Shown here: positions 13,783 through 63,358 of the stretch, in pieces
How the letters are laid out: every line of letters begins with the position of its first letter
Position numbering within the stretch: position 1 is the stretch's first letter
The notes under the pieces: generated by a model
Told to the model about the DNA's origin: nothing
Database searches by the model: none
What the model saw: the letters and a program-made list of their open reading frames with translations, nothing else
Assembly: GCA_023137595.1 (NCBI GenBank)
Contig: JAGLOZ010000002.1
Location: 1 to 63,358, forward strand
DNA length: 63,358 nucleotides
Source of the DNA: Minisyncoccota bacterium
Lineage (GTDB): Bacteria > Patescibacteriota > Minisyncoccia > JAHIHE01 > JAGLIN01
Reading direction: 5' to 3'
Translations under genes and position numbers: made by a program

Positions 13783-13800
13783 AAGTAGATTCATTGATAC

Positions 13801-14025
13801 GGACGCAAAGCATGAATTGGAGTTCTTACGAAAGTAAGTAGGAGCGCAAGATTTTGCGTTCACTTACGAAAGTAAGTAGGAACGCAAGATTTTGCGTTCA
13901 CACGTAAAATTAGCGAATTTCAAAAAAATTGTGACATTTCTTCCTGACTGAAGTTTACGCTGAATCCATTCGGCAAGCTCAGAACAAGCTTATTTCGGTA
14001 TCAAGATTCCGTTGTATTCAAATTC
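13801..14025. repeat. intergenic repeat family B (copy 1, with an internal 38-nt tandem duplication)
   Basis: Shares gacgcaaag..ggagt, acgcaa.attttgcgtt and gaatttcaaaa.aattgtga.atttcttcctgact blocks with 31921-32067, 34307-34455, 41559-41709 and 49111-49306. The unit cttacgaaagtaagtagga.cgcaagattttgcgttca occurs twice. Confidence 0.75.
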
Positions 14026-14039
14026 TTACGCTTTAAATT

Positions 14040-15104
14040 ATGAAAAACAAATTAGAAAAAATAAAAAAAGAATATGGAGAGATCACGGAAGAACTCAGCA
14101 AAACTGGTGTTGTTTCTGACGTAAGAAAATTCAAAAATTTAAATAAAAAGCAAAGTAAGCTTAAAGAAATTATAGATAAATATGAGCAATTTTTAATAAT
14201 AGAAAAGACTATAAAAGAAAATAGCGAGATAATAAGAAAAGAAGAAGATCGGGAATTAGTGTCAATGGCCGCTGAAGAAAACGAGAAGATAGCAGAAAAA
14301 AAAGAAAAGCTAGAAAAAGAGATCCAACTTCTTATAATCCCAAAAGATCCAAAAGATGAAAAAGATGTCCTGATAGAGATCAGAGCCGGCGCGGGAGGAG
14401 ACGAGGCCGGACTCTTTGCCTCTGAATTGTTCAGAATGTATGCAAAATTCGCTGAAAATAATAATTGGAAAACAATCATTTTAAGTTCAAACAGAACGCC
14501 GATTGGCGGATTTAAAGAAATTATTTTTGAAGTGAATGGACAAGATGTCTATTCAAAAATAAAATATGAAAGCGGAGTTCATCGAGTGCAAAGAGTGCCT
14601 GAAACTGAAAAACAGGGCCGCGTACACACTTCAACCGCGACTGTCGCGGTTTTGCCTCAAGCCGAAGAAACTGATATAAAAATTAGAAATGAGGACATCA
14701 GAATTGACATTTTTCGATCATCAGGTCCGGGCGGACAAAGCGTTAATACGACAGATTCTGCCGTCCGAATAACGCACATTCTAACCGGAGTAACCGTATC
14801 CTGCCAAGACGAAAAATCACAACTGAAGAACAAAAATAAGGCTATGCAAATTCTGCGCTCAAGACTTCTTGCTATTGAAGAAGAAAGAAAAGCAAAGGAA
14901 GAGTCTGGCGCAAGAAAGAGCCAGATTGGCACAGGGGACAGAAGTGAAAAAATTAGAACATATAATTTCCCGCAAGACAGGATTACCGATCACAGAATAA
15001 AAAAAAGCTGGCATGAAATTGAAAGCATCCTTGAAGGAGATCTGGATAATATAATCAGCTCTCTGCAACAAGCAGATCAGGAGAAAAAGAAAGAGAACGA
15101 ATAA
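14040..15104 (+). CDS. prfA: peptide chain release factor 1
   Basis: RVQRVPETE (RF1 P-x-T position) and [19 protein letters not shown] motifs. Confidence 0.9.
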
Positions 15105-15451: not shown

Positions 15452-15527
15452 TGTGCGTAAATGCTTACAAATCTAAAAACGCCAGGTATTTTTATTAAAC
15501 CCTGTTCCAATCCCTAAGAAGCTAAAA

Positions 15528-15547
15528 CCTGCCTGTCGACAGGCAGG
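15528..15547. repeat. perfect 20-bp palindrome CCTGCCTGTCGACAGGCAGG
   Basis: It interrupts a CTAAGAAGCTA..CAACCTAAAAA leader-type motif. Related cctg.c.g...c.ggcagg hairpins occur at about 54616-54633 and inside xseA at about 58706-58752. Confidence 0.7.
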
Positions 15548-15569
15548 GCTACAACCTAAAAAGCTAATT

Positions 15570-23096: not shown

Positions 23097-23138
23097 TTAT
23101 AGCCTCTTTCCATGCGGCCGCATGGAAAGACACTATAA
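23097..23138. repeat. family D palindrome (core TCTTTCCATGCGGCCGCATGGAAAGA)
   Basis: Perfect 26-bp palindrome centred on GCGGCCGC, with TTATAG/CTATAA outer arms. Same core as 40070-40117 and 40699-40752. Confidence 0.8.
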
Positions 23139-27000: not shown

Positions 27001-27306
27001 ATGCGAAATTTAACCCTAACATAACTTCTTCACTTTAACTCGCCTGCAAAAATTTGTCATCCTGAATTTATTTCAGGATCTTTGTTGTTTTAGGTTTTAA
27101 CTTATTACTATTCAACACTATACTTTCATCTACAATACAAATACAATTATCTTTCTATAATAACACAACCATTGTATTTTTAATTTATTCAAGAGTTCTG
27201 TGATTTATGGATTTTATTAAATGTAAAAGAAAATAGATCCTGAAACAAATTCAGGATGACAAACAGCAAAAGTTTTTGTTATTGATACATAGTTAAATTG
27301 CACATA
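27001..27306. mobile_element. MITE-like element, family A
   Basis: Inner TIRs tgtcatcctgaatttatttcaggatc / gatcctgaaacaaattcaggatgaca (27055-27261). Outer TIRs atgcgaaatttaaccct / tagttaaattgcacat. The conserved interior is aacactatactttcat.tacaa...tgatttatgga. Confidence 0.75.
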
Positions 27307-27826: not shown

Positions 27827-28657
27827 TTAACTCTTAATAGCTACAAATATTTTTTCAATTCTATTAATATCCACAAACATATTTACCCCCGCAGATTTAA
27901 AAACTTTATTCGCGGATTCTTTTATGTCTGAGATCTTTCCTATTATCAAGCCCTTAGGAACCTTATCTTCTAATCCGGAAGTTATGATCAAATCACCCAC
28001 AGCAAGCTCCTCCGACTGATTGATCATTTCCAGCTTCACTCCCGTCGCATAACTGCCTTTAACGACTCCATTCGCCCGACTAGTTTGAGTTATAGAATTA
28101 ATAGAACTTTTTGAGTCTGTTATCAGCATAACCTTTGAAGAATTGTCAAATACTTCTATAATTTTTCCAATTAACAATCCCCCGGACGCGACAACAGACT
28201 GTCCGTCTTGAATGCCATTACTTCTTCCCAGATCAATAAAAATATGCTTTCCGAAATTGCTAGGATCCCTTCCTATAACATCAGCCATTTTCCATTCAAT
28301 GCAAACTCCTTCGGAACAACTGCTCTCAGAAAACTTGATTTGCTTTCTTAAGATTTCGTTTTCTCTTTGAACCTCTTTCAATTCCGAAATCTCATAAGTC
28401 ATCTTTAAATTTTCCTCTTTAAGTTCCACGTTCTCCACTTTAAATTTATCTATACTTTTTAGCGTCCAGAAGAATTCATTCACTTCATTAGACGATAATT
28501 GAAACATTTTTCCAACAGGACTTGTAAAATATACTGTATAATTTTTTACCTGATCCAAATACCCGATCTTATTTAAAAAAATTAGCAGTACCGCAACTAC
28601 TAACAGAAAGATAAAGGTTACTATTTTTGTATTAATTTCTTTATTCATAAAAGTCAT
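27827..28657 (-). CDS. mreC: rod shape-determining protein MreC
   Basis: N-terminal TM helix, coiled coil and beta-rich C-terminus. Positioned after mreB. Confidence 0.8.
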   Translation of the reverse strand: MTFMNKEINTKIVTFIFLLVVAVLLIFLNKIGYLDQVKNYTVYFTSPVGKMFQLSSNEVNEFFWTLKSIDKFKVENVELKEENLKMTYEISELKEVQRENEILRKQIKFSESSCSEGVCIEWKMADVIGRDPSNFGKHIFIDLGRSNGIQDGQSVVASGGLLIGKIIEVFDNSSKVMLITDSKSSINSITQTSRANGVVKGSYATGVKLEMINQSEELAVGDLIITSGLEDKVPKGLIIGKISDIKESANKVFKSAGVNMFVDINRIEKIFVAIKS

Positions 28658-28660
28658 TTT

Positions 28661-28800
28661 AACATACTAACATTTTAACACACTAACATAGTTTTATTTT
28701 AATATTGACTTGATATTGTTCTAATTGCAATTTTTATAAATTATTTATTTTGCAATAAACCATTTTTTTCGCTTGTTAAAATGTTAATATGTTAGTATGT
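28661..28800. repeat. imperfect inverted repeat (family H words gttaaaatgttagtatgtt)
   Basis: aacatactaacattttaaca versus tgttaaaatgttaatatgttagtatgtt. Related words abut the start codon of the 53639-54544 gene and occur at 32281-32321. Confidence 0.5.
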
Positions 28801-28808
28801 TTATATGA

Positions 28809-31575: not shown

Positions 31576-31920
31576 TCTAGCGCCTCTCTGGTTCGGTGTC
31601 TTCCTTATTGATTCAGCGTCTCTGACCTGAACTTTTTTTTACATCATCTTTCGGAATTTATCACTGAACTAAATTCAGCGCAAGCTCTTCAGGGTTTCAT
31701 TTTTGATTTGCGACAACCTTGAAGCCATCAAAGGGTAAATTTCTATTTTGATCCTACTATTTTATTCTGCGCGAGAACAAGATTGTCCCGAGTAGTCGGG
31801 ATTTCTTTTGTTTTGAAATTTCATCTATTGCTGTTCCCTATAACAATAATCCTCGCTCTATGATTTTCTAATCTATTTTCCTGTCTCCAACAAACAAATG
31901 TATTCTTGTTAATTTAATGT

Positions 31921-32067
31921 ATAGGAATTCCAATATCACGGAATCCTGACGAGAGTCAGGAAGAAGCATCACAATTCTTTTGAAATTCACTAATCTTTCT
32001 TATGAACGCAAAATCTTGCGTTCCTACTCACTTTCGTGAGGACTCCAATTCGCGTTTTGCGTATGCG
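31921..32067. repeat. intergenic repeat family B (inverted orientation)
   Basis: ataggaatt...cctgacgagagtcaggaagaag.atcacaattcttttgaaattc...acgcaaaatcttgcgtt...gaggactcc. Confidence 0.75.
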
Positions 32068-32098
32068 TGAAACATAATTTCTAGGTCTCCCAACCTTT

Positions 32099-32266
32099 TT
32101 AGAACTTGATCTTTTCTATTCCATCTAAAACCGAACCAATTTTCTTTTCTATTCCATCTTCCAACTTACTAGCTTCATCTTTGATCTCGCTTTTCAGTCC
32201 CTTAAATCCATTTTGCTTTATTCCGTCCCATTTATCCAGAATCGTTTTGTCGTTTTTATTTTCCAT
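32099..32266 (-). CDS. hypothetical small protein (55 aa; MENKNDKTILDKWDGIKQNGFKGLK...DGIEKIKF)
   Basis: Hand translation; below the ORF-track cutoff. It lies directly downstream of rseP on the same strand and has no SD. Confidence 0.35.
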   Translation of the reverse strand: MENKNDKTILDKWDGIKQNGFKGLKSEIKDEASKLEDGIEKKIGSVLDGIEKIKF

Positions 32267-32321
32267 ATTTTTCTATTTTAAATATGTTAATATGTTTAGA
32301 TGTTAACATGTTAGAATGATT

Positions 32322-33434
32322 CTACCCAAACAATCCCATAACCTTTCCCCAAACATCCAGCTTCGCGATATCCTTAAATGTGACAACTAACATCAAGAGC
32401 ATCAAGAGCATAAAACCCACATTATTTACCTTTGCTTCCCAGATCTGATTTATCGGCGATCCTTTTATTTTTTCAACGATCAAAAATACCAATCTTCCTC
32501 CGTCAAGAGCTGGAAACGGAAGAGCGTTTATAATCGCAAGATTAATGCTTATGAGCGCCGTAAAATTCAAAACAGCTATAATGCCAAGTGATGCCGCTTG
32601 CTCGGTCATCATTGCGATGCCAACAGGACCTGAAACTTCAATAGCTGTTTTTCCAGTTGTAAAAAGGCTCCACAAAATCCCGGCAAACGCAGTAATGATA
32701 AACATTGTCAAGAATACGGTCCATTCATATCCTTTCTTTATAGCCTCAAGAAAAGGAAAAGAAACATTAGCGGTATTCACAAGAGACACACCCATAGCTC
32801 CTTCATTTTCAGGATACTTTTCTCTTGGAACTACTTCTCTAACACTGATTTCTTTGTTCCTTGAAACGGTCAATGCCACAGTTTCACCAAGATTATCTTT
32901 CGTGTAATTTTGCAGATCCTTTATGCTTTTGATCTCTTTTTCATCCGCTTTCAAAACCACATCTCCCAACTGAAGCCCGACATCATGAGCTGGAGTTCCT
33001 TCCAGAACTTCAGAGATCGCAACCTGTTCATTTTCCACGCTTCTGGCTTTAGACAGATCCTCTCCCTCAATGCTCATCGGAGCGCCTGCCATAAAAATTA
33101 TGCTAAATATCACAAAAGCCATAAAAAAATTCATTAGCACACCCGCTGAAATTATCTGGAATCTTTGACTTATACTTTTTGAAGAAAAACTTCTCGGATC
33201 GTTTTTTTCTTCACCGTCTTCACCAACAATTTTACAATAACCGCCCAAAGGCACCCAGTTTAATCTATATTCTGTTTCCCCTTTTTTAAATCCAAAGATC
33301 TTTGGCGGAAAACCCAGAGCAAATTCTTCAACTTTCACGCCATAAAGCTTAGCCATAAAAAAATGACCCAGTTCATGAAAAAAAACTATAACCCCGAGTA
33401 TCAATAAAAATAGAATTATTGTGGTTAATATCAT
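32322..33434 (-). CDS. rseP: RIP metalloprotease RseP (M50 site-2 protease with PDZ)
   Basis: FFHELGHFFMAK, a PDZ-like middle region, and the NALPFPALDGGR motif. Confidence 0.9.
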   Translation of the reverse strand: MILTTIILFLLILGVIVFFHELGHFFMAKLYGVKVEEFALGFPPKIFGFKKGETEYRLNWVPLGGYCKIVGEDGEEKNDPRSFSSKSISQRFQIISAGVLMNFFMAFVIFSIIFMAGAPMSIEGEDLSKARSVENEQVAISEVLEGTPAHDVGLQLGDVVLKADEKEIKSIKDLQNYTKDNLGETVALTVSRNKEISVREVVPREKYPENEGAMGVSLVNTANVSFPFLEAIKKGYEWTVFLTMFIITAFAGILWSLFTTGKTAIEVSGPVGIAMMTEQAASLGIIAVLNFTALISINLAIINALPFPALDGGRLVFLIVEKIKGSPINQIWEAKVNNVGFMLLMLLMLVVTFKDIAKLDVWGKVMGLFG

Positions 33435-34261: not shown

Positions 34262-34306
34262 AAATTTTTAAATTAATTAAGTTTGTAATTAATTAGGTTT
34301 TACAAA

Positions 34307-34455
34307 CAAAGACGCAAAGCGCAGATCGGAGTCCTCATGAGAGTGAGTAGAAACGCAAAATTTTGCGTTCATAAAAAAGATTAGCGAATTTCAAAAGAAT
34401 TGTGATATTTCTTCCTGACTCTCATCAGGATTCCATGAGATTAAAATTCCTATGC
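34307..34455. repeat. intergenic repeat family B
   Basis: caaagacgcaaagcgcagatcggagtcctc...acgcaaaattttgcgtt...gaatttcaaaagaattgtgatatttcttcctgact...aaaattcctatgc. Confidence 0.75.
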
Positions 34456-34481
34456 TTTTAATTATTTTCATCCAAACACAC

Positions 34482-35651
34482 TTAAAAAAATCCTTTTTTC
34501 TTTGGCGGTGGCGGCGGTGGCGGCGGGTCATAGAAAGAACCTACGTAAATTACATCCGAATTTCTATAATCGCTTATCGTATAGCGAACATCCCCTTTGA
34601 TCGGGATATCGTGCATTGACCATGTCATTCCGGCGTTATCACTTTTATACAAAACATTACCAGCTCCGTAATAAACAATATCACCTATCAAACCAATCTG
34701 TTTTATTTGTGGAACCGTACCTATTACTGTTTTTGACGGAGTTATCGTATTTAATTTCTCCCAGCTATTTCCTCCGTCTCTTGAAATAATTACTAAATTT
34801 TTATATGTTATATAAAGAATAAGAGGATTTGCGGGATGCATTGTTATTGAATTGATCGCACCCGCCCTTACTCCACGAACAGATTTAGCCATTTCAGTCC
34901 CTAAATCTTCCCATTCCTTCCCTCTGTCAATTGTTTTTTTAAGGCCAGTTGACAAACGCAAAATTATACCATTATTATTCCAAAAATCGATCAAGATATC
35001 CTTAACCTCCTCTTTTGCTTCAAACCACATTACAGTTTCCCATTCCTTGCCTCTGTTCTCACTTTTTATGAATCCAGCTTGGGCAGTACCTATGTAAATT
35101 ACATTCTGGGATTTTGGATCTATTTCAACTGCGTAAATAGGCTTATTGAGTTCAGAAATTATATGAGACTCAATCCAACTTTTTCCTCCGTCTTCAGTTT
35201 TTAATAATTCTCCGCGGCCATTGTTCAAGGTTGCGACATAAATTATATCAGAATTTCCTTTTTCTATGGCGATATCATAAATCGTCGCAACAGGGCTGAA
35301 TATTCCATTTTCATCAGTTATTTTTTCCCACGAGTCAGCTCCGTTTAAAGATCTATACAAACCATTTGCTGTTGTGCCAAGATATAAAATATTATTATCC
35401 TGCGGATCCATTTTCATACTCAATATTTTTACTCCATCGATCAAACTTCCATCAATAACATCAATTTTATGTTCCCATGTTTTTCCTCTATCAATAGATT
35501 TAAAAACTCCCTGATTATTATTCACAACAACAACATCATCAGCAACAGGCTCTTCTTTGGTCGTGCCTGACAAATTTAGACATCCGGTAAAAGAGGTCAT
35601 TATGATCGCAATAAGCAGAAGAGAAAATATTTTGTTTGTTTTTTTATTCAT
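34482..35651 (-). CDS. BNR/Asp-box repeat lipoprotein (Ycf48/sialidase-like beta-propeller) with a C-terminal poly-Pro tail
   Basis: Lipobox FTGC. Seven SxDxGxxW boxes. It ends PPPPPPPPKKKGFF. Start set to ATG 35651. Confidence 0.75.
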   Translation of the reverse strand: MNKKTNKIFSLLLIAIIMTSFTGCLNLSGTTKEEPVADDVVVVNNNQGVFKSIDRGKTWEHKIDVIDGSLIDGVKILSMKMDPQDNNILYLGTTANGLYRSLNGADSWEKITDENGIFSPVATIYDIAIEKGNSDIIYVATLNNGRGELLKTEDGGKSWIESHIISELNKPIYAVEIDPKSQNVIYIGTAQAGFIKSENRGKEWETVMWFEAKEEVKDILIDFWNNNGIILRLSTGLKKTIDRGKEWEDLGTEMAKSVRGVRAGAINSITMHPANPLILYITYKNLVIISRDGGNSWEKLNTITPSKTVIGTVPQIKQIGLIGDIVYYGAGNVLYKSDNAGMTWSMHDIPIKGDVRYTISDYRNSDVIYVGSFYDPPPPPPPPKKKGFF

Positions 35652-35668
35652 AGTCGAAACTAAATTAA

Positions 35669-36622
35669 TCAAATCTGTAAAAATAAATTTTCAATAGCCA
35701 GTCTGGGATTTACGTTTTTGGTTAAAATATCTCTTTTGGTATTATCTATCAAATTTATATTACTTTTAATTTTTACAACCTTGTTCTTGTTAATGTCATT
35801 TATTTTTTTATATTCCTTCAATAAAACTTTTCTTAAATAAAAAGAATATAAATTTAACAGATCAACGATTTCATTTATTTCTTTTTTTGAAACGATCTCA
35901 GCTTCGTCAAGCCTTTCAATGTCACCTTTTTGAACAAAATTTGAGAAACTATCCAATATACCGATCAATTCTTCAATTTTACCTCCGTCATTTGTAAATT
36001 CTACAATTTTTCCCGGTTTATACCCTGCCAATTCAATGATCTTTTCTACTCTGGATTGATCGCTTATTTTGTTTTTCACAAAATCTTCAAGAACCATTTT
36101 TTTTACCGGCAGAAATTTCAATATTTGACAGCGTGATTTTATGGTATCAAGTAAATTTCCGGAATTGGATGTCAAAAGTATTAAAATCGTTGTGCCACTT
36201 GGCTCTTCCAGTGTTTTTAAAATAGAATTAGCGGCAGATTTACTCATCATATCTGCTTGTTCTATAATCGCCACTTTATATTTTGCCGAATACGGAAAAA
36301 GGCTTAATTTTTTTTGAAGATCCCTAACTTGCTCGATCACTATCTGTTTTTTATCTTCATCTGGACGCAAAACAGCTAAATCTGGGTCTTCTTCAATTTT
36401 ATCTCCATTATCATCGTTGTTGGCTCCATATTTTTGCATGGGATCATTCCGCAAAAGCAATTTACAAAATGCCAACGCAAGCGTTTTCTTGCCAATATGC
36501 TCCGGACCATCAAATAGATAAGCATGAGACAATTTTCCTGTTTTATAGCTTCTTTCCAGCATGTTAACTATTTGTTCATTTCCAATTATTGCATTTTGAA
36601 AAGACATAATTTTCTCATTCAT
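35669..36622 (-). CDS. holB: DNA polymerase III delta' subunit
   Basis: HAYLFDGPEHIGKKTLA and KTLEEP motifs. Confidence 0.8.
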   Translation of the reverse strand: MNEKIMSFQNAIIGNEQIVNMLERSYKTGKLSHAYLFDGPEHIGKKTLALAFCKLLLRNDPMQKYGANNDDNGDKIEEDPDLAVLRPDEDKKQIVIEQVRDLQKKLSLFPYSAKYKVAIIEQADMMSKSAANSILKTLEEPSGTTILILLTSNSGNLLDTIKSRCQILKFLPVKKMVLEDFVKNKISDQSRVEKIIELAGYKPGKIVEFTNDGGKIEELIGILDSFSNFVQKGDIERLDEAEIVSKKEINEIVDLLNLYSFYLRKVLLKEYKKINDINKNKVVKIKSNINLIDNTKRDILTKNVNPRLAIENLFLQI

Positions 36623-40069: not shown

Positions 40070-40117
40070 TAGCCATAGCATCTTTCCATGCGGCCGCATG
40101 GAAAGATGCTATGGCTA
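40070..40117. repeat. family D perfect 48-bp palindrome (NotI-centred), overlapping the stop codon of the 40115 gene
   Basis: tAGCCATAGCATCTTTCCATGCGGCCGCATGGAAAGATGCTATGGCTa, symmetric about 40093/40094. Confidence 0.9.
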
Positions 40118-40639
40118 TATTTCCTCTATTAGAAATAATTTTACATATGAATCAATAGAATGTTTCCTTAAAATAAATTCAGTCTCTTTTTGAACATCAT
40201 AAGGACAAATCCAGATGCTTTGTTGAAGCATTTTATATTTCAGAAGAATAAGTTTTTCTCGCAACAAATTTCTCAAGTATCTTTTTTCTTCAGGAATATC
40301 AAAAATTATCATTTGCCATTTTTTGTCAGGTCTTTTTTTATTATCTTTTATTTTAAGTCTTGCTTTTAGAACTTTTTCTGCTCCTTTTTTGGTTAAAAGA
40401 ATTCCTTCATTTTGTTCTAAATTTTTAATCTTAATATAACCATTTTTCTTTAGATGATAAACTAGTTGAGTAAATTGCTGTTTTGTTTGTTTTTTTCTAT
40501 ACTGATTCTTTAATTCATAAAGAGACGGATAGCAATATTCTTTCATTTTTCTATACGAAAAAACAGTAAAGGTGTTGTCTAATTTCTCAGCATAGCTACA
40601 GACATCTAATAAAAATTTTTCAGTAATCGGAAGTTTCAT
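40115..40639 (-). CDS. wHTH regulator with a PaaX-type (Cas2-like) C-terminal domain
   Basis: N-terminal winged-helix-like segment (QLVYHLKKNGYIKI). C-terminal KKWQMIIFDIPEEKRYLRNLLREKLILLKYKMLQQSIWICPYD matches the W-x-iv-FDIPE...SvW.P pattern of PaaX-family/Cas2-like domains. Confidence 0.6.
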   Translation of the reverse strand: MKLPITEKFLLDVCSYAEKLDNTFTVFSYRKMKEYCYPSLYELKNQYRKKQTKQQFTQLVYHLKKNGYIKIKNLEQNEGILLTKKGAEKVLKARLKIKDNKKRPDKKWQMIIFDIPEEKRYLRNLLREKLILLKYKMLQQSIWICPYDVQKETEFILRKHSIDSYVKLFLIEEI

Positions 40640-40698: not shown

Positions 40699-40752
40699 AT
40701 ATAGCCATAGCATCTTTCCATGCGGCCGCATGGAAAGATGCTATGGCTATAT
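40699..40752. repeat. family D perfect 54-bp palindrome, 60-113 nt upstream of the 40115-40639 gene
   Basis: atATAGCCATAGCATCTTTCCATGCGGCCGCATGGAAAGATGCTATGGCTATat, symmetric about 40725/40726. A TATAAT box lies about 15-17 nt downstream (gene sense) of its edge. Confidence 0.9.
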
Positions 40753-41394: not shown

Positions 41395-41859
41395 TGTCAT
41401 TCTGAACTTGTTTCAGAATCTTTTACATGTTAGGTTTTAATTTTCGCTATTTAACGCCATATTTTCATTTACAGTAATTCTAGGTTTTCTTGATTAGTTT
41501 TCATTTGTTTGAGCTAGATTTTAAAAATAAATTTGGTCTTTGATATATACATGAAATACAAGCAGACATCGTGCAAACTGGAGTCCTCGCGAGAGCGAGG
41601 ATGAAATTTCGCAAGATTATTGAATTTCAAAAGAAATATGATATTTCTCCCTGACTGGAATTTATGAATTCAGTTCAGTATCGGGACTTCTTAGTATTAA
41701 AATTCCTTAATAATAATCTATTTTTAATTACAAACAACCGTTTCATCCTAAGCTTGTTTCAATATTTTCGCTGATTTCACGTAATACTATCTAAATGTAA
41801 AATACCGTAGATTCTGAAACAAAGCCTGTGCTGAATTTAGTTCAGTATTCAGAATGACA
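41395..41859. mobile_element. MITE-like element family A with a nested family B insertion
   Basis: Ends tgtcattctgaacttgtttcagaatc / ttcagtattcagaatgaca. The interior has ctatttaacgccatattttcatttacag. A family B copy lies at 41559-41709. Confidence 0.7.
41559..41709. repeat. intergenic repeat family B, nested inside the family A element
   Basis: cagacatcgtgcaaactggagtcctcgcgagagcgagg...gaatttcaaaagaaatatgatatttctccctgact...aaaattcctta. Confidence 0.7.
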
Positions 41860-44482: not shown

Positions 44483-44687
44483 TGTCATCCTGAATCCATT
44501 CGACTACCGCTCAGAACAAGCTTATTTCAGGATCTTTTGTAATTTAGGTCTGATCTATTCTATTTAACACTATACTTTCATTTACAACGCACACACAGAT
44601 TATATTAATTTATTCAAACGCTTTGATAATTTATGGATTTGATTAGATGTAAGAGAAAATAGATTCTGAACTAAATTCAGAATGACA
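44483..44687. mobile_element. MITE-like element, family A
   Basis: tgtcatcctgaatccattcgactaccgctcagaacaagcttatttcaggatc ... agattctgaactaaattcagaatgaca. The conserved interior is aacactatactttcatttacaacgca... Confidence 0.75.
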
Positions 44688-44740
44688 TCAACGTGTTTTA
44701 TTAGCTCTAATGCTCTAAAAAGCTAATAATAATCTTATTG

Positions 44741-49110: not shown

Positions 49111-49306
49111 CAAAGACATAGACACTTTCGCATATTTTGGAGTCCTCGCACTGGACTAAATTCAGCATAAACTCCAGCAAGAATGAAGCTTCACAGGATA
49201 AACGCGTTTCAAAATAATTGTGATCCCTCTTCCTGACTAGAGTCTATATTGAATTCAGCTCAGTATTAGGACTCCGCAATGTCCAAATTCCTATGCTTTG
49301 AATTAA
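49111..49306. repeat. intergenic repeat family B (between secE and nusG)
   Basis: caaagacatagac...ttggagtcctcgc...caaaataattgtgatccctcttcctgact...aaattcctatgc. Confidence 0.7.
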
Positions 49307-49323
49307 TATTCCCTAGCAATAAA

Positions 49324-54589: not shown

Positions 54590-54823
54590 TGTCGTTCTAA
54601 GCGTCGTTCTGAACCTGTCTGCTGATAGGCAGGCTTGTTTCAGAATCATTATTATTTTAGGTCTGATTTATACTATATTAACACCACACTTTCATTTACA
54701 GCGCAAACACAATTATTTTTTATAATACAGCTATTGTATTATAAATTCGTTCAAAAGTTTAGTGATTTATAGGTTTGATCAAATGCAAAATACAATAGAT
54801 TCTGAACTGAATTCAGAATGACA
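54590..54823. mobile_element. MITE-like element, family A
   Basis: gtcgttctgaacctgtctgctgataggcaggcttgtttcagaatc ... agattctgaactgaattcagaatgaca. The conserved interior is aacaccacactttcatttacagcgca. Confidence 0.75.
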
Positions 54824-54850
54824 TCAACGCATCCTGATAATTCAAATGTT

Positions 54851-56955: not shown

Positions 56956-56978
56956 GGCATTATACGATGCCTTTTTTT
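56954..56978. terminator. bidirectional terminator
   Basis: AAGGCAT-tatacg-ATGCCTT followed by TTTTTT. Confidence 0.75.
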
Positions 56979-57183
56979 ATTCTTCAACATTTCCCAGATC
57001 CTTCTTCACTTCCTCAAACTCATTCTCAACCTTTTTCAGCCTTTCTTTACTGGCTTTGATCAGTTTCACGCCTTCTTTGACTTTCTCAAGCCCTTTTTCA
57101 ACATCAACTTCTTCCTGCGATTCAAACCAATCCACTATCTTTTCCAATTTTTTAAGCGACTCGCTCAAATTTGTTTTTTCCAT
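56977..57183 (-). CDS. xseB: exodeoxyribonuclease VII small subunit
   Basis: 68-aa helical protein, LEKIVDWFES...VDVEKGLEKVKEG. Downstream of xseA. Confidence 0.8.
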   Translation of the reverse strand: MEKTNLSESLKKLEKIVDWFESQEEVDVEKGLEKVKEGVKLIKASKERLKKVENEFEEVKKDLGNVEE

Positions 57184-57316: not shown

Positions 57317-58987
57317 TTATTTCCCAACACCTCTCACCTCAGCCTCAATCTTCCCGTCAGAGATTTTTATATCAACAGCATCTCCTTTCCCCACTTGTTT
57401 TATGCTTCTTACAATTTTCCCGCCAAATGACACTATGCTATAACCAAGCTTCAATTGCCTTTCCGGATCGCTCGCGTTTATTGCATTTTCAAAAATATTT
57501 ATTTTGTTTTTTGTGTCTATGATCTTTCGACTATAATTTGAAAATATTCGGCTTGCAGAATCATCAACTGCGTGTCTCGCGCCATCAATCGCGTAATTTA
57601 TATTTTTAACTATTTTCAAAAAATTATTTTCCGCGTCAGTGAATCTTTGCAGTATATTTTCAAATTTTTGGTTCAGACTAAAAGAAATTCTTTCAATTTT
57701 GTGCTTGGATTCATATAAATATTTTTCAAATGAATTTATTAGAATTGCTTCATTGCGATTTAGTTTTTCAAAAGCCTTGTCCCATGATTCCCGAATTGCT
57801 CTTGCCGCAGCGGTCGGAGTTGAAACCGCAAGATCAGAAACAAGAGAAACAAGAGAAATATCTTTTTCATGTCCCACTCCGCAAATAACAGGGATATTCA
57901 AATCCGCAATTTCCCGCACCAGCGCCTCGTTGTTAAACGCCTGCAAGCTTTCCAAGCTTCCGCCTCCCCGAACTATTACCAGCGCGTCAATTTTTTTTAT
58001 TTTCCTAAATTGTCTCACAGCTTTTATGAGATCAAAAACAGCTTGTTTTCCCTCAACGCTGGAATCTATAAATTTGATCTTAAATCCATAGCTTCCCAAA
58101 TTTGTCGTAAAATCCCCTATCGCAGCACCCTTTGATGAAGTTATGAGTCCGATCGTTTCTGGCAGTTCCGGCAAAGATTTTTTTCTTTCAAGAGCAAACA
58201 ACCCTTCTTTTTCAAGTTTATTTTTAATTTCGTCATAAGCTTTTTTCAACGCCCCTTCTCCCGCAACTTCAACCAGACTTGTTTTTAGACTCAATTTTCC
58301 ATACGGCTTATAAATTTCAGGTCTTCCGCTTGCAATAATTTCATTTCCAATCTTGATCTTTACGCCGGAAATCTCATATTGATACCGAAAGATCAAACAA
58401 TTGATAACACTATCATCTTTCTCATCTTTTAAACTGAAATATACCACCTTCTCCCTTTCGTCAACGCTTGTCACCTCGCCTTTCAATCTCACCTCTTCAC
58501 TCGTCAATTTCTCATTCAAATGATCCAGAAATTCGCTAACGGAATAAATTTTTTCTTTTTGATCCGTTGCGCTAAAATCTAACGATGCGGTGCTCTCTTC
58601 TTCCCGCCCTGCCGGAGTCTCTCGCAAAGAACTATGATAAGATTCAGAATTACCCTCGCTTTCGCGAAAACTCCGATTCGCGCTTTGTCTTTCTGGTAAA
58701 ATTATATTCCTACCAGCCTGTCCGGCAGGCGGGAAAAACGGCTGCCTGCTGTCTATTTTATCATTTCCCAGACTTTCTTTTACCATATCCAAAATCTCCT
58801 TGCCATATTTATAATATTTTTTATCTTTTATTCCCTTGATACTTGTCAACTCTTCTCTCGTTTTTGGCTCCATCCTTGCAACATCTTCAATGGCTCTGTT
58901 TGGCAACACGCGAAAAATCTCAACCATTTCTCTTTTGGCCGTTGCGTCTCTCCACGCCTTTAATTTTCTGAGGAGATTTGGGTTCAT
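57317..58987 (-). CDS. xseA: HRDC domain - repeat-derived linker - exodeoxyribonuclease VII large subunit fusion
   Basis: N-terminal 70 aa are HRDC-like (LKAWRDATAKREMVEIFRVLPNRAIEDVARMEPKTREELTSIKGI). Residues from about 145 onward are XseA (IYSVSEFLDHLN...IGLITSSKGAAIGDF). Confidence 0.8.
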   Translation of the reverse strand: MNPNLLRKLKAWRDATAKREMVEIFRVLPNRAIEDVARMEPKTREELTSIKGIKDKKYYKYGKEILDMVKESLGNDKIDSRQPFFPPAGQAGRNIILPERQSANRSFRESEGNSESYHSSLRETPAGREEESTASLDFSATDQKEKIYSVSEFLDHLNEKLTSEEVRLKGEVTSVDEREKVVYFSLKDEKDDSVINCLIFRYQYEISGVKIKIGNEIIASGRPEIYKPYGKLSLKTSLVEVAGEGALKKAYDEIKNKLEKEGLFALERKKSLPELPETIGLITSSKGAAIGDFTTNLGSYGFKIKFIDSSVEGKQAVFDLIKAVRQFRKIKKIDALVIVRGGGSLESLQAFNNEALVREIADLNIPVICGVGHEKDISLVSLVSDLAVSTPTAAARAIRESWDKAFEKLNRNEAILINSFEKYLYESKHKIERISFSLNQKFENILQRFTDAENNFLKIVKNINYAIDGARHAVDDSASRIFSNYSRKIIDTKNKINIFENAINASDPERQLKLGYSIVSFGGKIVRSIKQVGKGDAVDIKISDGKIEAEVRGVGK

Positions 58988-59016
58988 AGATTAGGTTTTT
59001 AGGTTGTAACTTCTTA

Positions 59017-59137
59017 GAACCTGTTTAAAAAGTTTATTTTCGGGTAGATGCGAGCCCTTGCTCGCACCAAAAATAGCTCATCCCAAACGGTTCAAGTGAG
59101 GGTTTGAATCTACCCGGTAGAGTTTTTAAACAGGCTC
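59017..59137. other. nested-palindrome structured element of about 120 nt
   Basis: Outer arms GAACCTGTTTAAAAA/TTTTTAAACAGGCTC, middle arms CGGGTAGAT/ATCTACCCG, inner hairpin GCGAGC-cctt-GCTCGC. Its GC content is elevated. Confidence 0.4.
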
Positions 59138-59194
59138 TTAGCTCGTTAGGGATTTAAAATTTTCAGAATATTGAACGAAAAGCGTGCGTTTTAT

Positions 59195-61009: not shown

Positions 61010-61236
61010 TGTCATTCTGAATCCATTCAGTAAACCCAGGACAAGCTTAGTTCAGAATCTATTATGTATTAGATTTCAATCTATCCTGTTTATATTAACT
61101 TTCACCTAAACTATAAATACAACTATTTCTTGTATGAATATTGTAATTGTGTTTTCGTTCCAATCAAAATGTTTGATGATTTATTGAATAAATTAGTGTA
61201 ATAATTGAAAGATTCTGAACTAAATTCAGAATGACA
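61010..61236. mobile_element. MITE-like element, family A
   Basis: tgtcattctgaatccattcagtaaacccaggacaagcttagttcagaatc ... agattctgaactaaattcagaatgaca. Confidence 0.75.
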
Positions 61237-61301
61237 CCTACGCATCAACCTATGAATAACTCAGCAAATCCTGGTTTCTTGTCCCTAATTAAATTAATTT
61301 T

Positions 61302-63096: not shown

Positions 63097-63358
63097 GATT
63101 TAGGTTTTTAGGTTGTAGCTTCTTAGCTTCTTAGGGTTCTAGGACTTGTTAAAATATATTGATATTATCCCGATTCGCCAACTGACGAAGAATTGTCATC
63201 TCAAAGGAGGTGCGACTAAGAGATCTAAGAGTTAAACAAAGTTCACTTTAACTTTTCTTATTTCTAGCATAGTATAGTTTCCAGACCTCTCATACGTTTT
63301 TAGATAAATGCAACTATAAAACTCAAAATTAACAAATATAGTGTATTTTACAACGGCC

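Follow-up and report, generated by a model that had tools for sequence, protein, structure and literature searches.

The question raised by this locus is how DNA of the kind found between genes came to be part of a protein-coding sequence. The locus lies in a stretch of 63,358 nucleotides (the window) from a Minisyncoccota bacterium (GenBank assembly GCA_023137595.1, contig JAGLOZ010000002.1). In the window, one gene joins an HRDC domain, through a low-complexity linker, to the large subunit of exonuclease VII (ExoVII), XseA. The original prediction was that the linker is built from intergenic repeat modules and that a repeat-filled spacer between two genes had become coding, so that the genes were fused through a translatable repeat. 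The analysis described here replaces this story with a different order of events. It is highly probable that the HRDC-XseA fusion is old, and that its permissive, disordered tether later collected palindromic repeats in frame. The features concerned are listed in Table 1.

The predicted protein of 556 amino acids (aa), with an HRDC domain followed by a complete XseA, was borne out by Pfam, by alignments to structures in the Protein Data Bank (PDB) and by the continuous open reading frame (ORF). The HRDC domain scored 63.6 bits against PF00570, for which the gathering score is 23.8, and the HRDC structures of RecQ (2ma1 and 2rhf) aligned with aa 5-74. It is followed by an OB fold and then by Exonuc_VII_L (PF02601), matched over profile positions 1-315 of 315; the Escherichia coli XseA structure 8txr_A aligned with aa 165-470 (E 1e-41). 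The partner gene xseB (PF02609) is present, and the order xseA-xseB is the same in the relatives L002 and L005. An AlphaFold model of the fusion protein, built on 36 homologues, gave predicted local distance difference test (pLDDT) values of 80-96 for the folded domains, with a helical HRDC domain at about 90, and of 30-40 (all below 50) for aa 76-144. The linker peptide quoted in the prediction is present and falls in this stretch of predicted disorder. The linker has a G + C content of 47%, higher than that of the remainder of the gene (37-38%) and of the whole window (34%). A sequence scan of aa 69-156 found no in-frame start with a Shine-Dalgarno-like ribosome-binding sequence from which xseA could be translated separately. 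On the domain, structure, pLDDT, G + C and start codon results, the first description of the protein was therefore correct.

The age of the fusion was determined from its homologues. A search over 5.8 billion proteins yielded 4616 homologues at an E value of 1e-10 or better. Among the best 119 of these (the protein of the window excluded), all but one carry HRDC, OB and Exonuc_VII_L in one chain; the sole exception is a truncated entry, called 'partial' by its source. The 119 proteins are 476-601 aa long with 41-81% identity, and those with a name come from Patescibacteria, Pacebacteria, Parcubacteria or Moranbacteria. No relative with separate HRDC and xseA genes was found. The architecture had been called unusual for XseA, which holds in comparison with the characterised XseA proteins but not in its own clade, where it is the norm. 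HRDC-XseA is thus an old, clade-wide architecture of the Patescibacteria, and the standard form of ExoVII in many of them. It suggests that ExoVII is targeted to particular DNA structures in these organisms; no discussion of an HRDC-exonuclease VII architecture was found in the literature.

Since every one of these 119 homologues except the truncated entry has the fusion, it was not created in the lineage of the window, nor did the linker arise from a recent spacer. In an alignment of 36 homologues the domains aligned throughout, while the length of the linker varied between about 10 and about 90 residues and its alignment was possible only in the closest clade. Many homologues have short or unrelated linkers without the repeats of the window. 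Fusions with a conserved, non-repeat linker in relatives would have spoken against the predicted origin of the gene; the fusions are indeed widespread, but the linker is not conserved. The proposal that a repeat-filled spacer between HRDC and xseA genes lost its stop codon, giving rise to the fusion in this lineage, is contradicted by these data and hardly tenable. The linker does hold repeats of intergenic type and is G + C-rich like them. However, the fusion extends down to 41% identity and over several groups of Patescibacteria, many homologous linkers lack repeats, the repeats come and go inside an already fused gene, and no split arrangement was found.

Both kinds of repeat DNA that had been reported for the linker were recovered, but recognisable repeat DNA amounts to only about 75-90 of its 222 bases. 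The first kind is represented by a copy of a sharply bounded 21-nt palindrome (the 21-mer) with the canonical sequence CCTGCCT[A/G]CCGGACAGGCAGG, a stem of 7-8 bp and a loop of 5-7 nt. The copy in the linker has two mismatches to this sequence, where 0.00 matches were expected in shuffles. Sequence match, presence or absence as a whole unit, and the favoured frame LP(A/T)GQAG make it a member of this family; the L001 orthologue reads F-LPTGQAG-K and the window F-PPAGQAG-R. The linker hairpin had been likened to the one at 15528-15547, and rightly so: both 8-nt arms are shared, with a different loop, and the pattern CCTGCC-N0-8-GACAGGC matched only these two sites in the window (0.00 expected). 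The hairpin at 15528 is itself single-copy within the window.

The surroundings of the 15528 hairpin were also compared. A motif CTAAGAAGYTA-CAACCTAAAAASCTAAT is present at 15514-15568 (+), 58990-59017 (-) and 63099-63134 (-), the second just ahead of the xseA start codon. In the copy at 15514 the motif is interrupted by 27 nt that include the 20-nt hairpin and have GCTA on either side; at 58996-59017 and 63105-63134 it is empty. The intergenic variant may carry a target duplication of 3-4 nt (GCTA).

The second kind of repeat is family B. The window is rich in intergenic repeat families, of which family B has five copies, each a string of hairpins. The whole element measures about 165-250 nt and comprises module 1, an ACGCAA..TTGCGT hairpin and module 2. 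A profile of module 1, trained on the five intergenic copies only (13795, 34304, 32069rc, 41558 and 49114), matched the linker at 58654-58691 (-) with 23.4 bits and an E value of 2.6e-6, the sole significant hit in the window outside the training copies. Independently, the three best non-trivial gapped blastn matches of the linker were all to family B (32027-32059, 41564-41600 and 34298-34332), at the same position of the element. The match is thus better than chance. Module 1 ends in a GNRA-looped hairpin, the stem of which varies between copies through compensatory changes: CTTAC/GTAAG, CTCAC/GTGAG and CTCGC/GCGAG in intergenic copies, TTCGC/GCGAG in the linker, which has both module 1 and this hairpin. 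The full-length model aligned over profile positions 7-47 (E 1.6e-4). As only module 1 matches, the linker contains a fragment of about 38 nt and not a whole family B element. At gathering thresholds Rfam recognised three tRNAs only in the window, and none of the repeats. We also considered family B as the terminal inverted repeats (TIRs) of a transposon, as two inverted 153-nt copies flank 2.2 kb (approximately 32-34 kb); this was rejected because the interior holds rseP-like and frr housekeeping genes.

The third piece repeats part of the left arm of the 21-mer in inverted orientation. It forms inverted repeat I3 (58601-58616 / 58721-58736), which makes a long-range stem in the predicted RNA fold. 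The 58601-58616 pattern occurs nowhere else in the window and was found only in the window's lineage, as an extra segment relative to L006. The entire interval 58601-58736 was considered as one 136-nt miniature inverted-repeat transposable element (MITE) with 16-nt TIRs, and rejected as a single insertion because relatives show that its parts were gained at different times. In addition, the linker around 58635-58650 (GTAATTCTGAATC) matches 12 of 13 nt of one arm of a long-hairpin family, TGTCATTCTGAA...TTCAGAATGACA.

Together, these matches support the conclusion that part of the linker is DNA of dispersed, otherwise intergenic, repeat families, which is probably translated. It is very unlikely that they are chance matches, without any repeat DNA, in a fast-evolving, low-complexity, G + C-rich linker. 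In favour of chance are the small size of the matches (21 and 38 nt) and the lack of a second copy of the 15528 hairpin in the window. Moreover, a pattern scan for family B over species genomes gave 15 matches, about the estimated chance number, apart from clustering in three metagenome-assembled genomes (MAGs); the full-length profile confirmed only L010-L012 and L019, clustered matches from these three Paceibacterota/Parcubacteria MAGs. Against chance stand the E value of the profile and the absence of expected 21-mer matches given above, an identity of 23/23 nt between the linker of L005 and an intergenic site, and 80 independent copies of the 21-mer that are sharply bounded with random flanks.

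Table 1. Positions of the HRDC-XseA gene, its parts and the repeats compared with its linker (window coordinates)
Feature	Position	Strand	Remarks
HRDC-XseA fusion gene	57317..58987	-	single uninterrupted ORF, 556 aa
HRDC domain, aa 4-69	58781..58978	-	PF00570 E 1.7e-17; 2ma1/2rhf; pLDDT 88-92
Disordered interdomain linker, aa 76-144	58556..58762	-	pLDDT <50, raised G + C, hypervariable among homologues
XseA OB fold, aa 148-236	58280..58546	-	PF13742 (tRNA_anti_2), E 4.6e-15
ExoVII large-subunit catalytic and coiled-coil region, aa 263-550	57338..58201	-	PF02601 E 1.5e-65; 8txr_A
xseB (ExoVII small subunit), immediately downstream of xseA	56977..57183	-	PF02609 E 2e-8
Decayed in-frame copy of the 21-nt palindrome, CCCGCCTGCCGGACAGGCTGG, encodes PPAGQAG	58713..58733	-	2 mismatches to canonical CCTGCCTRCCGGACAGGCAGG
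Family B module 1 homologue, GNRA hairpin TTCGC-GAAA-GCGAG, encodes ...QSANRSFRESEG...	58654..58691	-	nhmmer E 2.6e-6
Partial inverted copy of the 21-mer left arm, TCCGGCAGGGCGGGAA, within ...TPAGREE...	58601..58616	-	inverted repeat I3
Intergenic 20-nt perfect palindrome CCTGCCTG-TCGA-CAGGCAGG	15528..15547	.	loop variant of the 21-mer, between ORFs
Family B, reference intergenic copy	34304..34470	+	intergenic repeat
Family B, further copy	13795..14045	+
Family B, further copy	31905..32069	-
Family B, further copy	41558..41715	+
Family B, further copy	49114..49310	+

The order of events was derived from the linker codons, aligned with the DNA of seven close relatives (L001, L002, L004, L005, L006, L007 and L008). 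The 21-nt unit is missing as a clean gap of seven codons in the outgroup relatives L002 and L006 (P0007 and P0008, QPLF-KDILL). It is single in the window, L001, L007 and L008, and tandemly doubled, with an extra 21 nt, in L004 and L005. The orthologous copies in XseA linkers have accumulated 2-5 mismatches. An extra linker segment bearing CCGGCAGGGCGGG is present in the window only. The window, L002 and L006 share an orthologous family-B-like stretch, and the L001 group has a 9-nt deletion there, followed by different palindromes; at the orthologous site the module 1 score falls from 23.4 bits in the window to 12.1 in L002 and 4.8 in L006, and the hairpin is broken in the relatives. Every change in the linker keeps the frame, and from this, as the main and indirect support, we infer that the linker is translated. 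The comparison shows that the repeats arrived after the fusion existed: fusion first, repeats later.

The same relatives carry matching palindromes elsewhere in their DNA. The sequence identical (23/23 nt) to the L005 linker is at L005:4493-4515, between the xseA and xseB genes of L005 itself. Further copies of the 21-mer are intergenic at L002:210-237 and L001:6003-6023, and an S8 peptidase has one in frame in its C-terminal tail (L001:115-144). Another dispersed palindrome, TCCGCCAGCTGGCGGA(..GAATGACA), is part of the L001 and L004 linkers; the contigs of the relatives contain it at about ten other sites that appear to be intergenic. The tether has therefore repeatedly taken up palindromes that circulate in the genome.

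In the explanation that we favour, a disordered tether, about 70 residues long and under little sequence constraint, links the folded parts of the protein, and short palindromic repeats, scattered mostly between genes, have landed in it. The repeats would persist there because they add whole codons, contain no stop in the frame used and disturb neither domain. Three pieces are still recognisable: the 21-nt palindrome (PPAGQAG, originally LP(A/T)GQAG), the family B fragment of about 38 nt and the window-specific partial inverted copy of the arm. Once inserted, the pieces would decay by ordinary substitution and small in-frame insertions and deletions. Their presence and absence and their decay suggest that they are neutral passengers.

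The distribution of the 21-mer extends far beyond this clade. It was found in at least 120 stretches of public metagenome contigs (L024-L143). The 80 copies in low-G + C contigs are exactly 21 nt long with A or G at position 8, and their flanks have background composition, except that T is rare at -1 and A at +22. Variants of 19-20 nt were in ORFs in 3 of 9 cases, against 46 of 83 for the 21-nt form, which are too few copies for a comparison. Copy number is low, about one per 20-60 kb, and a tandem array is present in L108 (NLPAGQAG-LPTGKAG-LPTGQAG). In viral contigs the 21-mer was found in 25 stretches (L147-L171), and a single contig of 29 kb has as many as six copies; three of these six are in the low-complexity N-terminus of a phage glucosaminidase.

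Of 79 copies in low-G + C contigs, 46 were inside open frames of at least 150 aa, and 31 of these 46 (about 67%) were in a single frame and orientation, reading LP(T/A)GQAG (binomial P ~3e-14 against one in six). The other five frames give Cys/Arg-rich peptides, and one has a stop. Judged by eye from the translated ORFs, the hosts include enolase, aspartyl- and isoleucyl-tRNA synthetase, LigA, a UvrD/PcrA-type helicase, a GH13 enzyme and alpha-2-macroglobulin; in-frame copies in TatD and in the CCA-adding enzyme were confirmed by homologue searches. Examples are at L062:3428-3448, L091:404-424, L084:5230-5250, L069:7199-7219 and L152:2768-3774. The hosts include Paceibacteria, Chitinophagaceae and phage proteins, and the insertion sites are unrelated.

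For two of these proteins, orthologues with and without the insert could be compared. In TatD (Paceibacteria by the names of the homologues), three clusters have HPND[LPTGQAG]NPDE, and relatives with 77-80% identity lack exactly these seven residues. In the pairs L084:5230-5250 and L144, and L145:10204-10224 and L146, the filled site is longer than the empty one by precisely the 21 nt. At this site, the only one compared at the DNA level, there is no target duplication beyond a 1-nt ambiguity. A second TatD lineage, with 60% identity, has a perfect 21-mer at the same codon position (GA^Y AAT), whereas its own neighbours lack it. Either the element was inserted more than once at this TatD site or it was precisely lost several times. 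In the CCA-adding enzyme of Chitinophagaceae (Bacteroidota), proteins that are 75-90% identical have the insert at one site, lack it, or carry it there in mutated (LPAKQAG) or doubled form; in one protein, another variable insert contains a further copy. The TatD and CCA-adding enzyme alignments also contain other short in-frame inserts, with similar peptides at differing positions (PARNASGTADAGG / PAHNASDTAGVGG, VAKAEAGSPS / VALAKEGSLQ and VKEVSKVSPTGGDLEGA), which look like further translated mini-repeat families.

Two other accounts of the 21-mer were rejected. A sequencing or adapter artefact is contradicted by the frame bias, by diverged orthologous copies and by clean polymorphism in clusters from several independent sources; to our knowledge, the 21-mer resembles no known sequencing adapter. 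Several intergenic copies had suggested insertion at the tips of pre-existing hairpins. As a rule this does not hold, because contiguous complementarity of the flanks is at background and 84 of 119 copies have none.

The palindromes might instead be functional, as a ribosome-pausing or mRNA-stability hairpin, as a DNA site recognised by a protein, or through selection of LP(T/A)GQAG as a hinge or recognition motif. The RNA fold of the linker is unusually structured (z = -3.42; none of 200 shuffles reached the native value), the 21-mer is identical across phyla and biased towards one of its six frames, and diverged TatD and CCA-adding enzyme lineages share an occupied site. Recurrence at the same site and exact conservation leave room for a function, or for a strong target preference. 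Nevertheless, we regard a function as improbable. The 21-mer is present or absent among orthologues that are 77-90% identical, host proteins and positions are unrelated, the copies in XseA linkers have gathered mismatches, and in the relatives the hairpin of family B is no longer intact. The frame bias itself is expected from selection against the alternatives that are Cys/Arg-rich or contain a stop.

It is possible, and we propose this tentatively, that the linker hairpin is a decayed copy of an undescribed and currently active mobile element of only 21 nt. Such an element would insert precisely without target duplication, be identical in Patescibacteria, Bacteroidota and phages, owe its survival within essential genes to a length of exactly seven stop-free codons, usually read as LP(T/A)GQAG, form tandem arrays and hit the same site repeatedly. 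Because no target duplication was seen, the likeliest route of movement would be precise insertion of a hairpin-forming element by an enzyme acting in trans; a single-strand cut-and-paste of the HUH type would agree with this lack of duplication and with the hairpin form. No published description of the LP(T/A)GQAG peptide, of the 21-mer DNA or of in-frame palindromes in bacteria of the candidate phyla radiation (CPR) was found.

Searches by tblastn with sequences of TnpA and of REP-associated tyrosine transposases (RAYTs; REP, repetitive extragenic palindrome) over approximately 1.1 Mb gave two matches, of which one is near a copy of the 21-mer (L132, PF01797). This is an IS200-like/RAYT-type Y1 transposase gene at L132:10351-10917, flanked by palindromes of the GCGCGCGTTTGCAACGCGC type, and it carries the 21-mer in frame (CLPAGQAG). 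In these searches no link was found to support a RAYT or IS200 transposase as mobiliser of the 21-mer: the only nearby Y1 gene is the host of the copy and is flanked by different REPs.

Several points weigh against an old fusion with later, neutral uptake of repeats. Repeats account for only about 40% of the linker, and for about 60% no source was identified. In approximately 50 kb of contigs from close relatives no intact family B copy was seen, and no empty site marks the borders of the piece derived from family B; for these two reasons, the piece may be either the product of a conversion from a family B copy, specific to the window, or an ancestral insertion that has since decayed in the other lineages. 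The search over 1.1 Mb described above found no mobilising enzyme. Exact conservation across phyla, frame bias and recurrence at the same site could mean that the 21-mer is not merely a neutral passenger. Finally, we infer a single translated protein that includes the linker from frame conservation only.

The colonisation of proteins by palindromes in frame, best known from Rickettsia, also occurs in the reduced genomes of CPR bacteria. If the 21-mer is mobile, it would be among the smallest mobile DNA elements known and a general source of loop insertions of seven residues in proteins. It would then be a tractable case for studying the movement of very small elements, would mark recent exchange of DNA among CPR bacteria, their neighbours and phages, and would provide a natural experiment on the tolerance of proteins to loop insertions.

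Other repeats were observed in the window. The long-hairpin family TGTCATTCTGAA...TTCAGAATGACA, which is the other repeat family of the original prediction, is present at 27053-27263, 41395-41432, 44509-44693, 54784-54846 and 61197-61242; in the relatives its arms enclose the palindrome TCCGCCAGCTGGCGGA. Two identical perfect palindromes of 51 nt (TAGCCATAGCATCTTTCCATGCGGCCGCATGGAAAGATGCTATGGCTATAT), at 40070-40120 and 40699-40749, flank a 578-nt segment and have relatives at 23099-23136 in the window, L001:6225-6279 and L004:276-321. In the 400-nt spacer upstream of xseA, 59013-59141 is a nested inverted repeat with outer arms of 24 nt and inner arms of 28 nt; it is MITE-like in shape and single-copy in all DNA compared. 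Arrays of 8-nt units (ATATGTTA / TAACATAT-like) are intergenic at 28654-28808 and 32255-32326, mutually inverted. A 396-aa protein at 34482-35672 (-) ends in PPPPPPPPKKKGFF, which derives from a GGCGGTGGCGGCGGTGGCGGCGG run beside a family B copy (G + C-rich run 34498-34539). No other in-frame G + C-rich inserts were found in genes of the window when inspected by eye; the G + C-rich islands in other ORFs look like ordinary protein, including conserved motifs.

The gene and its repeats can be compared with known systems. E. coli XseA (456 aa, 8txr) has the same OB fold, catalytic domain, long helical region and adjacent xseB. It lacks the HRDC domain and the long disordered tether; the N-terminal RecQ-like HRDC domain is specific to the clade.

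In fungal mitochondria, GC clusters, double-hairpin elements and byp elements are short G + C-rich palindromes in A + T-rich genomes that can be situated in protein genes. All of these are organellar; the byp elements are skipped by the ribosome, and their length need not be a multiple of three. In contrast, the 21-mer is exactly 21 nt long and its frame bias argues for translation. Uptake signal sequences and DNA uptake sequences are species-specific 9-12-mers with hundreds to thousands of copies that arise by substitution. Like these, the 21-mer is a short, exactly conserved DNA motif that is tolerated in ORFs, with a frame bias and in variable protein segments; unlike these, it is a 21-nt insertion, has a low copy number and is common to several phyla.

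The 21-mer is a single palindrome without TIRs around a core and without duplication of the TatD site, which differs from a MITE. REPs are palindromes of 20-40 bp in many copies, mostly extragenic, with an intragenic minority, notably in genes for replication and repair (Di Nocera et al. 2013, PMC3733652). The 21-mer has the size of such an imperfect palindrome and, like REPs and REPINs, occurs as singletons, dimers and arrays (PMC3733652). However, its flanks are at background composition, without the GTAG/CGTC end tag of REPs; more than half of its copies in low-G + C contigs are inside ORFs, and its sequence is identical in different phyla. It was placed with neither REPs nor MITEs because it has no tag, is not mainly extragenic and lacks the anatomy of TIRs plus duplication.

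The closest likeness is to the Rickettsia palindromic elements (RPEs), which are documented in frame within protein-coding genes (review PMC10969869). As with RPEs, the palindromes are found both between genes and inside ORFs, where they add whole codons without a stop to tolerant parts of unrelated housekeeping proteins, and the hosts have reduced, A + T-rich genomes (PMC10969869). RPEs are about 100-150 bp long, form families specific to Rickettsia (RPE-1 to RPE-10) and code for a conserved peptide some tens of residues long, whereas the pieces in the linker measure 21 nt (7 aa) and about 38 nt. Patescibacteria take the place of Rickettsia as hosts, and the 21-mer is also present in Bacteroidota and phages. 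With this size and these hosts, the likeness to RPEs lies in behaviour and not in membership. The known kind is thus that of in-frame palindromic repeats, represented by RPEs and intragenic REPs; what seems new is the host group, together with a very small element that seems to cross phyla.

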